Source: Felixounavirus LF110P2
Sequence record: OZ035782.1
DNA length: 64,000 nt
Reading direction: 5' to 3' (one strand)
Each line of letters opens with the position of its first letter. Position 1 is the first letter of the stretch. Made by a program: the position numbers and the translations under genes. This document shows, piece after piece, positions 5,727-61,643 of the stretch. The notes under the pieces were generated by a model, which saw only the letters and a program-made list of their open reading frames with translations, was not told where the DNA came from and did not search any database.

Positions 5727-6833
5727 ATGTTGACTAATTCTGAAAAAAGCAGATTTTTCCTTGCTGACCTGACTGGTGAAGTCCAGTCTATCCCAAATAC
5801 TTATGGGTATATTTCCAACTTAGGTCTGTTCCGTTCAGCACCAATCACCCAAACTACTTTCCTTATGGACTTGACTGATTGGGATGTTAGCTTGCTTGAT
5901 GCGGTAGACCGTGATAGCCGTAAAGCAGAGACTAGCGCACCTGAGCGTGTTCGTCAAATCAGCTTCCCAATGATGTACTTCAAAGAAGTTGAAAGCATTA
6001 CTCCTGATGAAATTCAGGGTGTACGTCAGCCAGGCACTGCAAACGAACTAACTACTGAAGCTGTAGTACGTGCTAAGAAGCTGATGAAGATTCGTACCAA
6101 GTTCGATATTACTCGTGAGTTCCTGTTTATGCAAGCTCTGAAGGGTAAAGTTGTTGATGCTCGTGGTACTCTGTATGCTGACCTGTACAAGCAGTTCGAC
6201 GTTGAGAAGAAGACTGTTTACTTCGACCTTGACAACCCTAATGCTGACATCGACGCTTCTATTGAAGAACTGCGTATGCACATGGAAGACGAAGCTAAGA
6301 CTGGCACTGTAATCAACGGTGAAGAAATTCACGTAGTTGTTGACCGCTTATTCTTCAGCAAACTGGTTAAACACCCTAAGATTCGTGACGCTTATCTTGC
6401 ACAGCAGACTCCGCTGGCTTGGCAACAGATTACTGGTTCTCTGAGAACTGGTGGTACTGACGGCGTTCAGGCTCACATGAACACTTTCTACTACGGTGGT
6501 GTTAAGTTTGTCCAGTACAACGGTAAGTTCAAAGACAAGCGTGGTAAGGTTCACACTCTGGTGAGTATTGATAGTGTAGCAGCAACTGTTGGTGTAGGTC
6601 ATGCTTTCCCTAACGTTTCTATGCTGGGTGAAGCAAACAACATCTTCGAAGTGGCATATGGTCCATGTCCTAAGATGGGTTATGCAAATACACTTGGTCA
6701 GGAACTGTACGTATTCGAATACGAAAAAGACCGTGACGAAGGTATTGACTTTGAAGCTCACTCTTACATGCTGCCATACTGCACACGTCCTCAGTTGCTG
6801 GTAGACGTTCGTTCTGACGCTAAACCAGACTAA
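5727..6833 (+). CDS. Major capsid protein
   Basis: 368 aa ORF following protease and decoration genes with good RBS; position and size typical of HK97-fold capsid protein; no motif independently verified. Confidence 0.55.
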   Translation: MLTNSEKSRFFLADLTGEVQSIPNTYGYISNLGLFRSAPITQTTFLMDLTDWDVSLLDAVDRDSRKAETSAPERVRQISFPMMYFKEVESITPDEIQGVRQPGTANELTTEAVVRAKKLMKIRTKFDITREFLFMQALKGKVVDARGTLYADLYKQFDVEKKTVYFDLDNPNADIDASIEELRMHMEDEAKTGTVINGEEIHVVVDRLFFSKLVKHPKIRDAYLAQQTPLAWQQITGSLRTGGTDGVQAHMNTFYYGGVKFVQYNGKFKDKRGKVHTLVSIDSVAATVGVGHAFPNVSMLGEANNIFEVAYGPCPKMGYANTLGQELYVFEYEKDRDEGIDFEAHSYMLPYCTRPQLLVDVRSDAKPD

Positions 6834-26708: not shown

Positions 26709-27092
26709 TCAAATACCTGTGCAGCTTCTGTTTTCTAAGAAATACTCAACACCGTACATAGCTTTTTGCATCAAATCTTCTTTAAACTGGATACGATGAT
26801 TGAGCATATCCTGTACATCAATATTATCATGGTGTTTCTCTTTAATATTTGCAGATTGCAGGAAATACTCTGCAAGAACGCGATATTGATAGTCAGTCAC
26901 CTTATCAGTCATCTCTGTCAAAGACTCTTCAGAGATTGGTTTTAGTAACTCACCATTAGCTAGAGCAACACCTTTTACAATCTGGCAAGTATCTTCTGGA
27001 ACACCTGACAAGTCCACATTTGGGAGTTCTGTTGCATTGACTGGTAAATTCATTGCCATAACCATTGCAGCAGCTAATAAAATCTTTTTCAT
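26709..27092 (-). CDS. Secreted/periplasmic protein (signal peptide)
   Basis: N-terminus MKKILLAAAMVMAMNLPVNA is a Sec-type signal peptide; first gene after the long non-coding leader. Confidence 0.4.
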   Translation of the reverse strand: MKKILLAAAMVMAMNLPVNATELPNVDLSGVPEDTCQIVKGVALANGELLKPISEESLTEMTDKVTDYQYRVLAEYFLQSANIKEKHHDNIDVQDMLNHRIQFKEDLMQKAMYGVEYFLENRSCTGI

Positions 27093-27502: not shown

Positions 27503-28606
27503 TTATTCGTAGTCTCGAATAACTAACCCGACAGGGAACTGTAGAGACCCCTTACGAGTCATCTTCTGGAACTGAACCGTTAAAGGCTTCCCGATAAACT
27601 CTTCAGGATGCTCAGCAAGATACTGTTTCTTCTCATGAGTAGTCTTCCATGAGACATCTACAAAGACGTTAGGAAGAGTCTCTACAACGAACTTGCCATG
27701 ACCACGCTTATCAGTCTTTACACCAGTCACTTTAAACTCTTCAGTGTGCATCTTCTTGTGCTTAATCAAGAAATATGAACGGTGACCACACTCGTAGAAA
27801 GATTCTTCAGAGATTGAACGGTACATTGCACCTTCAAAATCAGCTTCAACCCATTTATCATGAGCTTCATCAAACTCTTCCCAAGAGTTAACACGACGAG
27901 ACTTGACAGGGACAACTCTACAGCCGTCTCTAAAGTCATTCAATGGTGAAGTCTCAATAATATCCCTACGCTCAGGCCACGTCTTAGTGCTGTCACAGAT
28001 ATCATACCAGTAAAACTTGAGTAAATGTCGGTCAGGATTGTCTTCATTTTTAATCATAGAGACAATATCTTCTAAGTCCAACCCATGAGCATAGATTTCA
28101 CCATCAAATTCATCAACATCTTTATGGAGCCTCAACATTGCCATAATGTCAGGTATTAGCTCAGTAGGAATTTTATAAATAGTGTTCTCACGAGAATATG
28201 CTGTAAATACGCTGCCAATACTTAAGTGTCTTGAAATTCTACAACGGACACCATCAAGTTTTGGTTGAGCATCAGCAGGGAACTTCAGATACTTTGCATG
28301 ACTAACCTTTGCAGCATCATGAGCAAGCTGCACACCTACCTTCTCAGTATTCTGTGCAGACTCTTTTGTGTAAGCATAGCCTTTGCGGTCAACCTGCTTT
28401 TTATACTTAGCAGCAACTTCAAAGAGAGCTTGCTGTTCAGCGTTACGCTCATTCTTTTTACCGATGTTTTTAGGTTCTGCTGTATACTCTTCAAACATCA
28501 TCTTGCCATTTTCTTTACCGTAGGTTGTAATAACTTTGTCACCTACAGCAACGCATGACCAGACGTTGAAAGAGCCGTCTTTATTTTGTTTGTACAGTAT
28601 TGTCAT
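27503..28606 (-). CDS. ATP-dependent DNA ligase
   Basis: Adenylation motif KLDGVRC (KxDGxR), then DGEIYAHG, EGAMYRS and FLIKHKK in the order of ligase motifs I, III, IV, V. Start set at ATG preceded by AGAGGA RBS. Confidence 0.6.
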   Translation of the reverse strand: MTILYKQNKDGSFNVWSCVAVGDKVITTYGKENGKMMFEEYTAEPKNIGKKNERNAEQQALFEVAAKYKKQVDRKGYAYTKESAQNTEKVGVQLAHDAAKVSHAKYLKFPADAQPKLDGVRCRISRHLSIGSVFTAYSRENTIYKIPTELIPDIMAMLRLHKDVDEFDGEIYAHGLDLEDIVSMIKNEDNPDRHLLKFYWYDICDSTKTWPERRDIIETSPLNDFRDGCRVVPVKSRRVNSWEEFDEAHDKWVEADFEGAMYRSISEESFYECGHRSYFLIKHKKMHTEEFKVTGVKTDKRGHGKFVVETLPNVFVDVSWKTTHEKKQYLAEHPEEFIGKPLTVQFQKMTRKGSLQFPVGLVIRDYE

Positions 28607-28607
28607 T

Positions 28608-28799
28608 TTATTCCTCTGAGTGATACCAAGTATTGCAAGCATTACATGCGTAAAGCTCTAAGTCATTTTTGTCTGGTTTATGGAAACAGTTTGCTCCGCA
28701 GTGGCAACGAAACGGCTTTCCACCAACTGTCAGAATGAAGGATTGAACCTTTCCATCAGGAGTCCGTACAGCATTTTTATGCTTGTCTTCTTTATTCAT
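28608..28799 (-). CDS. Small zinc-ribbon protein
   Basis: CHCGANC ... CNACN cysteine/histidine pairs; 63 aa. Confidence 0.3.
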   Translation of the reverse strand: MNKEDKHKNAVRTPDGKVQSFILTVGGKPFRCHCGANCFHKPDKNDLELYACNACNTWYHSEE

Positions 28800-28955
28800 T
28801 TGTGCTATTGCCTTTGTCAGATTTCATATAGGACATGTTACTATACCTTTTAATAAAATGTACAACGCATTTTGGTGTATCCTTTGAGTCTTTGATGTGC
28901 AATCTCTCGAAACTGTGTACTGTGAAGGTTGCATCTGTCATTGTTTGCTTAGGTT

Positions 28956-29162
28956 TCATTTTCTCTTACCACCAATCTCTACGTCAATAACTTGAACATC
29001 ACCAGCAACATCAAACTTATGAATGATGCTTTCCACAGTGTAAGTCCAACCCTCGATTCGAACCAACTCACCTTCTCGTGGGACGATTGGGTTACGTTGA
29101 GCTACGGTTGTAGTGGAGTGAACAACATCATAACAGTATATATAGTTCACTAGGACTTCCAT
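28956..29162 (-). CDS. Hypothetical small protein
   Basis: 68 aa from internal ATG with GAGGTG RBS. Confidence 0.3.
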   Translation of the reverse strand: MEVLVNYIYCYDVVHSTTTVAQRNPIVPREGELVRIEGWTYTVESIIHKFDVAGDVQVIDVEIGGKRK

Positions 29163-29172
29163 CTTGAACACC

Positions 29173-29409
29173 TCACTCAATAACAGTAGTGTGTGATTGA
29201 CCATTTTTGCCATAGCTATAAGATGTTGTTGTTTGAGAGTTTGGACACCTGACAACAACAATGTCTCTGCTTATGGCATCACCATGTAACTTATAGACTT
29301 TGCAATCTTGCATCTCTGGTGGGAGGCTATAAGAAGCGTTTTTGTCCTCGTAAGAGGGATTACAGCCAGATAGAAAGATAACACTAAGCACAATTACTGC
29401 TTTCCACAT
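29173..29409 (-). CDS. Small lipoprotein (lipobox LSGC)
   Basis: MWKAVIVLSVIFLSGC...: hydrophobic signal followed by L-S-G-C lipobox; AGGAGAAG RBS upstream of this ATG. Confidence 0.45.
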   Translation of the reverse strand: MWKAVIVLSVIFLSGCNPSYEDKNASYSLPPEMQDCKVYKLHGDAISRDIVVVRCPNSQTTTSYSYGKNGQSHTTVIE

Positions 29410-29422
29410 AATACTTCTCCTA

Positions 29423-29578
29423 TTACTGTTCACGATGTTCTACTTCTCTGTACGTTCGTCGATAGTTTATAATAAGCTGTGCTAACTCGTTGCTTTTAAC
29501 ATCTGAACGTAGAAGTTGCCAATCAAAACCTTTACCGACTCTTCCATACAAACTAAAGAATTTTACTTTGCGTTTCAT
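29423..29578 (-). CDS. Small basic ORF (51 aa), not in supplied track
   Basis: ATG preceded by GGAGATACC; translates MKRKVKFFSLYGRVGKGFDWQ...; fills the gap between flanking genes. Confidence 0.2.
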   Translation of the reverse strand: MKRKVKFFSLYGRVGKGFDWQLLRSDVKSNELAQLIINYRRTYREVEHREQ

Positions 29579-29595
29579 TTTGGTATCTCCAATAC

Positions 29596-29808
29596 TCAGA
29601 TGTCAATGCTAATACGTTCACCCTTAAGGACTCCTGTACGGTCCCTTGCAATCTTACCGTCAACAATAAGGATGTGTGCAGACCTTAAAGATTCGCCATT
29701 AAAAGCTTTTACGAACTTACAAGGCATTACCACAATAGACATCTCCTGAATCAACTCTGGAGTATAGCAATTGTCGTGAAGTTGCTGAATAACGTCTGCA
29801 AGTGTCAT
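29596..29808 (-). CDS. Small protein, paralogue of ORF 30011..30220
   Basis: MTLADVIQQL...DGKIARDRTGVLKGERISIDI versus MTLSEIEVQL...GGKIAKDKTRYLKGERVDIENLL. Confidence 0.35.
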   Translation of the reverse strand: MTLADVIQQLHDNCYTPELIQEMSIVVMPCKFVKAFNGESLRSAHILIVDGKIARDRTGVLKGERISIDI

Positions 29809-30014
29809 TTTTGATGTCTCCAATACTCAATGTCAATAAGTTCTTGTGCAATGCTTTTCAGATTACCTTTCAAGAAAACCTTCTCAGAACCTGAAAGAGA
29901 TGAATTGTCAATTAACCTGTTCATTCTCTCAAACAACTTCTGCTTACGGTTCTTGATAGTTTCCTTTGAAGCACCTTTCATCATCGCTGCATGGGTTCTT
30001 CCACGGTGACTCAT
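29805..30014 (-). CDS. Hypothetical small basic protein
   Basis: 69 aa ORF with 4-nt overlaps to both neighbours. Confidence 0.3.
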   Translation of the reverse strand: MSHRGRTHAAMMKGASKETIKNRKQKLFERMNRLIDNSSLSGSEKVFLKGNLKSIAQELIDIEYWRHQK

Positions 30015-30220
30015 AGCAAATTCTCGATGTCTACACGTTCACCTTTTAAGTACCTTGTCTTATCTTTTGCGATTTTCCCTCCAGCAATAAAGATATCTGC
30101 TATACGCAGAGCTTCAGGGTTTACTCTATAACCACTGCAAATAACAATAAGCATGTCTTCAATCTCTTTTTGAGAATAACCTGCACATTGCAACTGAACT
30201 TCAATCTCTGAAAGCGTCAT
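30011..30220 (-). CDS. Small protein, paralogue of ORF 29596..29808
   Basis: AGGAGGT RBS; shared N- and C-terminal sequence with the downstream paralogue. Confidence 0.35.
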   Translation of the reverse strand: MTLSEIEVQLQCAGYSQKEIEDMLIVICSGYRVNPEALRIADIFIAGGKIAKDKTRYLKGERVDIENLL

Positions 30221-30281
30221 GTGACCTCCTATACAAGATACAGTATAAGGTACTCTTCCATGAGCACCTTGTCAATACTAA

Positions 30282-61132: not shown

Positions 61133-61480
61133 ATGACATTTAAAGAGTTCTGTCAAGCTACTTTCATAATTGTTTTCTTAGTTGGGGCGGGTGTCTGGGG
61201 AGGGTACTCTTACAGAGACTACCAAGTTGCTGAAACTGAGCTAAACAATCAAAAGCTCATAAGTGTTGCTAAAGATGCTTATCAGGAAGGATTAGTTACA
61301 CTGAGCGCCAATTACAAAAATGATTTGAAAGATGTGCTTGCTAAGAATAAGCACACAAAAGAGGTACTAACATATGAAAAAACTAAGCCAGAGTTTTATA
61401 ATGTTTGTGTTACTGATAATTATGTCAGGGTGTTCAACGAACAAAGTGAACAGTACATTCAAAAACTCCCAAGTAAGTGA
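61133..61480 (+). CDS. i-spanin (Rz-like, inner-membrane spanin subunit)
   Basis: N-terminal TM helix FIIVFLVGAGVWGGY followed by charged helical periplasmic domain; an overlapping +1-frame lipoprotein ORF begins inside it. Confidence 0.5.
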   Translation: MTFKEFCQATFIIVFLVGAGVWGGYSYRDYQVAETELNNQKLISVAKDAYQEGLVTLSANYKNDLKDVLAKNKHTKEVLTYEKTKPEFYNVCVTDNYVRVFNEQSEQYIQKLPSK

Positions 61481-61643
61481 GAGTGATAAGTACACTCAAG
61501 AAGAATCACGGTATATCATCAAAGGCAACACAGGCAGTGATGTAGCAGCAGCACTTGAGTTCTACCGTGACGGCTTTTACCAGTGTACAATTAAAGCTAA
61601 TAACCTTATTGACATGATTTTATTAGGGAATAAGCAGCAATGA
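61374..61643 (+). CDS. o-spanin (Rz1-like outer-membrane lipoprotein), overlapped with i-spanin
   Basis: MKKLSQSFIMFVLLIIMSGC: signal sequence with lipobox ending in Cys; AGAGGT RBS; starts within the i-spanin gene in another frame. Confidence 0.5.
   Translation: MKKLSQSFIMFVLLIIMSGCSTNKVNSTFKNSQVSESDKYTQEESRYIIKGNTGSDVAAALEFYRDGFYQCTIKANNLIDMILLGNKQQ

Follow-up and report, generated by a model that had tools for sequence, protein, structure and literature searches.

T5 Llp and the Cor proteins of phages phi80, N15, T1 and HK022 are superinfection-exclusion lipoproteins that inactivate FhuA. Llp acts on the periplasmic face of this receptor, and in the T5 literature llp is placed immediately upstream of the receptor-binding protein gene pb5; in the T1 genome cor sits among tail genes. 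Rtp45 and Bas18_0026, two small siphophage exclusion lipoproteins that bind LptDE, extend this picture, as Rtp45 demonstrates that envelope machines other than TonB-dependent transporters can be lipoprotein targets; the phages that encode them enter through LptD as their receptor. Llp and Rtp45 are both exclusion factors, and they represent the characterised small lipoproteins of virulent Gram-negative phages that are not spanins. T4 Imm and Sp (spackle) are early-made envelope proteins of a virulent myophage and block DNA transfer or cell-wall digestion independently of the receptor. Neither of the two is a lipoprotein: Imm is integral to the inner membrane, and Sp is a helical protein of the periplasm.

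Felixounavirus LF110P2 carries a gene that invites comparison with these systems. In the 64,000-nucleotide stretch of its DNA analysed here (the window), a lipoprotein precursor of 78 aa is encoded on the minus strand at 29173-29409, stop codon included, with the ATG at 29409 and the stop codon at 29175-29173; its translation is MWKAVIVLSVIFLSGC followed by NPSYEDKNASYSLPPEMQDCKVYKLHGDAISRDIVVVRCPNSQTTTSYSYGKNGQSHTTVIE. The gene is the homologue of Felix O1 ORF91 (Felix01p170). A preliminary description of this DNA had reported a hydrophobic signal with an LSGC lipobox, an own ribosome-binding site and a location far from the spanin genes, and it had proposed the product as a candidate superinfection-exclusion factor of the Llp kind. 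The signal and the lipobox are indeed present. Residues 1-16 (MWKAVIVLSVIFLSGC, 29362-29409, minus strand) run from the signal peptide through the lipobox and comprise a charged n-region (K3), a nine-residue hydrophobic core (AVIVLSVIF) and the sequence L-S-G-C16, which fits the pattern [LVI][ASTVI][GAS]C with the cysteine inside the permitted range of positions 15-35. When we coded our own rule of the PROSITE PS51257 type, the protein passed it (K within the first seven residues, where K or R is required, six non-charged residues, F-L-S-G-C, Cys16), and so did 144 of 160 members of its family. Signal peptidase II is thus predicted to cut before Cys16, which would become the lipid-modified N-terminus.

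The translation signals agree with this start. The 20 nt upstream of the ATG are ACAGTAATAGGAGAAGTATT and contain the AGGAGAAG motif that had been described, with a Shine-Dalgarno AGGAG (29417-29421, minus strand) at a 7-nt spacing from the ATG and directly 3' of the preceding ORF (51 aa), whose stop codon occupies 29423-29425. An alternative in-frame GTG at 29433 would add eight residues (MNSNRRSI...) and leave the lipoprotein signal valid; the ATG at 29409 is the start common to the Mooglevirus homologues, and the Shine-Dalgarno sequence belongs to it and not to the GTG. Pairwise Nei-Gojobori comparison of six Ounavirinae alleles, from phages of Salmonella, E. coli, Shigella and Citrobacter and leaving out the ASO1B row, which was mis-registered by one codon, gave dN/dS values of 0.01-0.09 for the mature part at dS from 0.5 to >2. 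For the signal-peptide part of the same alleles the values were 0.1-0.8, as would be expected if hydrophobicity alone were constrained there. The mature domain is therefore under strong purifying selection, and 29173-29409 is a real gene. That its product is an exported, lipid-anchored protein of the family described below is, from its sequence features, highly probable.

The only other locus with a lipoprotein signal in the window, in a six-frame scan of ORFs of at least 40 aa, was the o-spanin at 61374-61643, which overlaps the i-spanin at 61133-61480 (phrog_1152, Rz-like spanin). O-spanins make up the majority of small lipoproteins in Gram-negative phages, and the LF110P2 protein shares with those of the Rz1 type its small size, its phage origin and an outer-membrane sorting signal; moreover, a few family members weakly matched Rz1/LysC models. 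A lysis-related role, for instance as a second o-spanin or as a regulator of spanin or lysis timing, was nevertheless judged highly improbable. The Rz1/LysC matches were driven by the signal peptide, and the genome has its own complete, overlapping spanin pair (61133-61643) about 32 kb away, the distance from which the preliminary description had rightly argued. In contrast to an o-spanin gene, the one at 29173-29409 lies outside a lysis cassette and is neighboured by small cytoplasmic-looking ORFs, no i-spanin partner or lysis gene adjoined it in any of the loci compared, and its expression context is that of replication and not of late genes.

The protein matched PHROG 902 (E=3.9e-17, residues 1-76 against profile positions 8-87 of 118), a family that is already catalogued without a characterised function. 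When 1.84 billion representative proteins were searched exhaustively with a profile, about 670 clusters (50% identity) reached E<=1e-3 and 113 of them E<=1e-10, and nearly all clusters were 75-110 aa long; some of the UniProt members carry the label 'Lipoprotein'. By tblastn the gene was found in 586 phage records, and the 6 kb around it shared 91-95% identity with over 170 Felix O1-like phages that infect Escherichia, Salmonella, Shigella and Citrobacter. Within the Ounavirinae the family occurs in Mooglevirus and, with a patchy distribution, in Felixounavirus. It is further present in Vequintavirinae (A73), Stephanstirmvirinae (Klebsiella phage FKP3), the Asteriusvirus jumbo phages Sharanji and SP27, the unclassified, near-identical jumbo phage Turkey3, Eneladusvirus jumbo phages (fHe-Yen9-04), a jumbo Erwinia phage, Obolenskvirus (Acinetobacter phage SHI), Acinetobacter phage ME3, about 295 Vibrio Demerecviridae and T4-like Aeromonas phages. 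The structural neighbours retrieved from BFVD were likewise family members, from Yersinia, Aeromonas, Vibrio and Acinetobacter phages.

No close bacterial or archaeal relative was found in representative genomes of 185,579 species, and a motif-based scan of the same species for distant relatives, which covers VVRCPNSxT variants only and thus gives a lower bound, returned a single locus, in Hylemonella gracilis. Since these genomes held no close relative and one distant locus, PHROG 902 is essentially phage-restricted, and the identified carriers are virulent. The Hylemonella member, from strain ATCC 19624 (contig NZ_AEGR01000062.1, positions 5983-6261 of locus L016), also matches PHROG 902; the other large ORFs around it are almost without PHROG matches, and it may derive from a prophage, a contaminant or another source. 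Our copies of Pfam, NCBIfam and PADLOC contained no family model that matched, other than by weak hits driven by the signal peptide, and a PDB sequence search with the lipoprotein returned nothing. A precomputed PF16225 tag on close homologues (P0001-P0011) was disregarded, as current Pfam gives no such match at E<=10; it is probably a faint precomputed match or stems from a retired model.

The mature domain (residues 17-78, after Cys16; 29176-29361, minus strand) is predicted to form five beta-strands, placed at residues 19-22, 37-42, 49-54, 60-66 and 69-75 in an AlphaFold2 model of moderate confidence (pLDDT 74.6). An alignment of 130 family sequences contained exactly three invariant columns, C16, C36 and C55, with P30, P56, T60, G67 and K68 conserved in at least 90% of the sequences, and the family core reads Y-x-L-P-x-E-L-x-D-C-K-[IV]-[YF] ... 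V-V-R-C-P-N-S-x-T-T-T ... G-K. In the model C36 and C55 flank a beta-hairpin, which is followed by the conserved RCPNSxTTT...GK segment. Because this invariant cysteine pair sits in an exported protein, a C36-C55 disulfide is probable; the second and third cysteines lie 16-18 residues apart in the family (18 in LF110P2). The lipid-bearing cysteine precedes the second one by 19-21 residues in 122 of 139 members, and such a fixed tether between anchor and domain suggests that the geometry relative to the membrane matters. Other features of the family vary. About 20 of 144 members have an extra cysteine pair (C-G-K-N-C) in the last strand, and many relatives (P0020, P0026, P0036, P0063, P0070 and P0096 among them) carry a C-terminal extension with V-[VI]-I-D-G-V-x-Y that is absent from the Felix O1-type proteins. 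Two metagenomic sequences (P0012 and P0013) are frameshifted 64-aa alleles, identical to about residue 45 and out of frame beyond it, which suggests an occasional natural loss of function.

In outline, the protein has much in common with Llp and Cor: a mature part of about 60 residues, a lipoprotein signal, beta-rich structure and one internal disulfide, as predicted here, and with T5 Llp in particular a production soon after infection by a virulent phage. Rtp45 and Bas18_0026 are also comparable, with roughly 6 kDa and an action from the periplasmic side of the outer membrane. These likenesses, together with the Asn at position +2 of the LF110P2 protein, which predicts outer-membrane sorting, could be accounted for by a receptor blocker of the Llp/Cor/Rtp45 type that binds the periplasmic face of an outer-membrane receptor, alters its surface loops and stops adsorption. 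A further hint in this direction was that one relative, from Yersinia phage g072, weakly matched the NCBIfam Cor model, though below threshold (18 bits where the cut-off is 31; E=0.0019). This lead was dropped, since the follow-up with Cor/Llp profiles was negative; Cor was not among the 25 families most frequently matched across 130 members.

The detailed comparison does not bear this kinship out. We used an Llp query 100% identical to T5 llp, read T1 Cor from the T1 genome and collected 11 Cor homologues. No homology between the mature domains was detected: hhalign of the 130-sequence profile against Llp, and against a 13-sequence profile of Cor plus Llp, aligned 19 columns of the signal peptide only. 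Nor did the model match the fold of any PDB chain in a library that runs up to April 2026 and is meant to include the FhuA:Llp and LptDE:Rtp45 complexes; it is through this structure library that the LF110P2 protein was compared with Rtp45. The invariant cysteines of Cor and Llp are at mature positions of about 8 and about 57, so that their disulfide connects both ends, N- and C-terminal, of the mature chain, whereas C36 and C55 are central and would clamp a hairpin. While llp, cor and the genes for Rtp45 and Bas18_0026 lie beside or within receptor-binding or tail loci, the LF110P2 gene lies among replication genes, and in none of 26 diverse loci was the family adjoined by tail or receptor-binding genes. 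The receptors differ as well, since Felix O1 and its relatives are reported in the literature to target LPS and no protein receptor (PMC8594841), and not a TonB-dependent transporter such as FhuA. It follows that there would be no outer-membrane protein receptor for a periplasmic lipoprotein to inactivate, and from the periplasmic side it has no means of covering LPS molecules that have already reached the surface or sit on cell debris. Furthermore, the mature domain is nearly invariant among phages of different host genera and shows no diversification within the genus, and phage lineages with very different hosts carry the family. Because homology, cysteine topology, gene location and receptor all differ, membership in the Llp/Cor family was rejected and an Llp-like mechanism is unlikely; receptor blocking of this type has, in our estimation, a very low probability. 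What stands of the analogy with T5 Llp drawn in the preliminary description is therefore the small early lipoprotein, and not the blocking of a receptor.

The sorting signal supplies a further argument. According to the '+2 rule' of Enterobacteriaceae, an Asp at position +2 keeps a lipoprotein from leaving the inner membrane. The sequence is Cys-Asn-Pro in Felix O1-like members, with Asn at +2, whereas Asp occupies this position in several members from other enterobacterial phages, namely A73 (Cys-Asp-Gln), fHe-Yen9-04 (Cys-Asp-Gly) and Sharanji, Turkey3 and FKP3 (Cys-Asp-Ala). The predicted membrane thus differs between members of the family, and a single membrane-bound target is not obvious. 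Inner-membrane members with a short fixed tether could not, by this prediction, reach the outer membrane, which argues further against a universal role in blocking outer-membrane receptors; the target would have to be accessible from the inner as well as the outer membrane, unless members of the family work at different ones.

The genomic setting points to replication and host takeover. The gene belongs to a co-directional block on the minus strand, which leads from the DNA polymerase gene (33011-30282) through four small ORFs (29423-30220; phrog_4230, 5180, 4230 and 2381, tightly packed or overlapping), the lipoprotein gene and three more small ORFs to the DNA ligase gene (28642-27503). Two of the small ORFs, at 29596-29823 and 30011-30220 (minus strand; 75 and 69 aa), are phrog_4230 paralogues that flank the phrog_5180 ORF and look like a local tandem duplication. 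Just 3' of the polymerase stop codon we found a promoter-like element (30242-30275, minus strand) composed of TTGACA (30275-30270) and TATACT (30247-30242), which is nearly identical to an annotated promoter of phage AYO145A. With its non-canonical spacing of 22 nt it was missed by the consensus scan, in which promoter and terminator counts near the lipoprotein gene did not exceed those of shuffled sequence; the element may serve as an internal promoter for the small-gene cluster that includes the lipoprotein gene. Annotations of related genomes put promoters 5' of the polymerase gene and a terminator 3' of the ligase gene.

As for timing, published RT-PCR data on Felix O1 show ORFs 87-90, 93 and 96 peaking at 25 min, with ORF96 reported as transcribed within 5 min; ORF91 is absent from this timing table, and two comparative papers on Felixounavirus make no mention of lipoproteins. 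From this context and from the RT-PCR of the Felix O1 neighbours, the lipoprotein would be produced alongside the replication genes, early to middle in infection. The placement of the gene in an early region, as first described, accordingly holds as an approximation drawn from the replication block and from neighbours that are early to middle. In the neighbouring early operon, the ORF at 26709-27092 (minus strand, 127 aa, phrog_4332) has a classical cleavable signal peptide, MKKILLAAAMVMAMNLPVNA followed by TELP, and no lipobox; with this product and the lipoprotein, LF110P2 would thus send at least two non-lysis proteins to the periplasm.

Across the 26 diverse loci the lipoprotein was the sole family common to all in an all-against-all BLAST of the neighbours. 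No neighbour family occurred in more than four loci, and those four were from closely related genomes; no conserved partner gene emerged, either from this BLAST or from the PHROG annotation of the immediate neighbours. The large neighbours included an origin-binding protein, DnaB helicase, primase, clamp loader, two RNA ligases, NAMPT, an ATPase, an HNH endonuclease and RIIA. In the Felixounavirus SUSP1 a small phrog_3474 gene occupies the slot of the lipoprotein, and every small gene of its polymerase-ligase block was scored 'Not fit' in a CRISPRi-ART screen, which is uninformative on the lipoprotein itself because SUSP1 carries a different cassette there. Taken with the frameshifted alleles, the slot swap and the 'Not fit' block indicate that the lipoprotein gene is accessory and laboratory-dispensable. 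The polymerase-ligase interval as a whole (28600-30220) is a cassette-exchange hot spot when compared with SUSP1 (AVU07_agp041-044), ASO1B (locus L001) and others: the number and identity of its small ORFs vary among Felixounavirus genomes, some of which also carry inserted HNH endonuclease genes.

The lipoprotein gene is accessory and sits in a mosaic region made up of small early genes, where anti-defence functions are typically encoded. This, the patchy distribution within Felixounavirus and the occurrence of one distant member 1 kb from a rIIA homologue would be in line with a protein that counters a host or prophage defence acting or sensing at the membrane or in the periplasm. We regard such a counter-defence function as improbable, given that genes engaged in an arms race are not typically under strong purifying selection with no diversification, that PADLOC gave no significant match (one weak hit, E=0.041), that most known defences are sited in the cytoplasm, and that a host range from Vibrio to Acinetobacter implies a very widespread target.

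Superinfection exclusion by a mechanism unlike that of Llp is a reasonable, plausible guess. We rated exclusion the likeliest role because the characterised small lipoproteins that are not spanins are exclusion factors and because T4 Imm and Sp act after adsorption. In the form that we tentatively prefer, though with less than even confidence, the precursor would leave the cytoplasm by the Sec route, receive its lipid at Cys16, lose its signal peptide to signal peptidase II and remain anchored in a periplasm-facing membrane leaflet, as sequence rules predict; the 62-residue mature part would fold into a compact beta-domain, clamped by the C36-C55 disulfide and held at a short fixed distance from the lipid anchor, as invariance and the model suggest. 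It might then bind, as a membrane-proximal periplasmic effector, a conserved component of the cell envelope and spare the infected cell a secondary infection or lysis from without, by acting once adsorption has taken place, at the level of tail penetration, cell-wall digestion or DNA transfer. The outcome would be akin to that of T4 Imm and Sp, a likeness proposed for function alone and for which homology is not expected, and it would dispense with the receptor masking seen with T5 Llp. The 19-21-residue spacing was taken as a sign of membrane-proximal action, and the early and host-takeover neighbours, the lack of a partner gene, the phage restriction and the accessory status were counted in favour of post-adsorption protection as well; the taxonomic breadth, the LPS receptor and the undiversified mature domain speak for a target other than a phage-specific receptor. 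Against it we counted that these searches linked the protein to no known exclusion protein, by sequence or by fold, that the +2 residue differs between members and that the confidence of the model is only moderate. Many other periplasmic roles would fit the same observations.

Among these, an envelope or host-takeover factor without a role in phage exclusion, which would inhibit or mimic a host periplasmic component and keep the cell intact and productive, is nearly as likely as post-adsorption exclusion, even if unlikely in absolute terms. Candidate targets would include a cell-wall hydrolase, an envelope-stress sensor (Rcs, for instance) or the Tol-Pal, Lol, Lpt or Bam machinery; in a variant of this explanation the protein might shield the cell against bacteriocins or contact-dependent toxins. 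A conserved host target would account for the breadth over unrelated virulent phages together with the strongly conserved mature domain; the gene is embedded among early and host-takeover genes and is dispensable in some relatives, anchoring in either membrane would suit a periplasmic or cell-wall target, and the RCPNSxTTT loop beside the putative disulfide recalls periplasmic enzyme inhibitors that insert a loop. On the other hand, known inhibitors and envelope proteins showed neither homology to the lipoprotein nor a similar fold, and the tightly fixed spacing between anchor and domain favours a membrane-embedded partner over a free periplasmic one.

Returning to post-adsorption exclusion, its most far-reaching version, which we put forward as speculative and consider unlikely, is that PHROG 902 constitutes a new class of receptor-independent envelope effector, in which a lipid-anchored, disulfide-clamped mini-domain would act on a conserved gammaproteobacterial envelope machine and block later phage entry or lysis from without after adsorption. 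If true, this would represent a general superinfection exclusion distinct both from the receptor inactivation by Llp, Cor and Rtp45 and from T4 Imm and Sp. To our knowledge, small early lipoproteins are the only known way in which virulent Gram-negative phages alter the envelope from the inside, and in every characterised case that we know of (Llp, Cor and Rtp45) a protein receptor is inactivated. PHROG 902 is found in at least eight unrelated lineages, LPS-binding phages included, and therefore probably acts on something more general. Its target could reveal a new mechanism of exclusion or host takeover and could point to a vulnerable conserved component of the envelope. Felix O1-like, rV5-like and jumbo phages are common components of cocktails, and the target of PHROG 902 could also explain interference between therapeutic phages in such mixtures.
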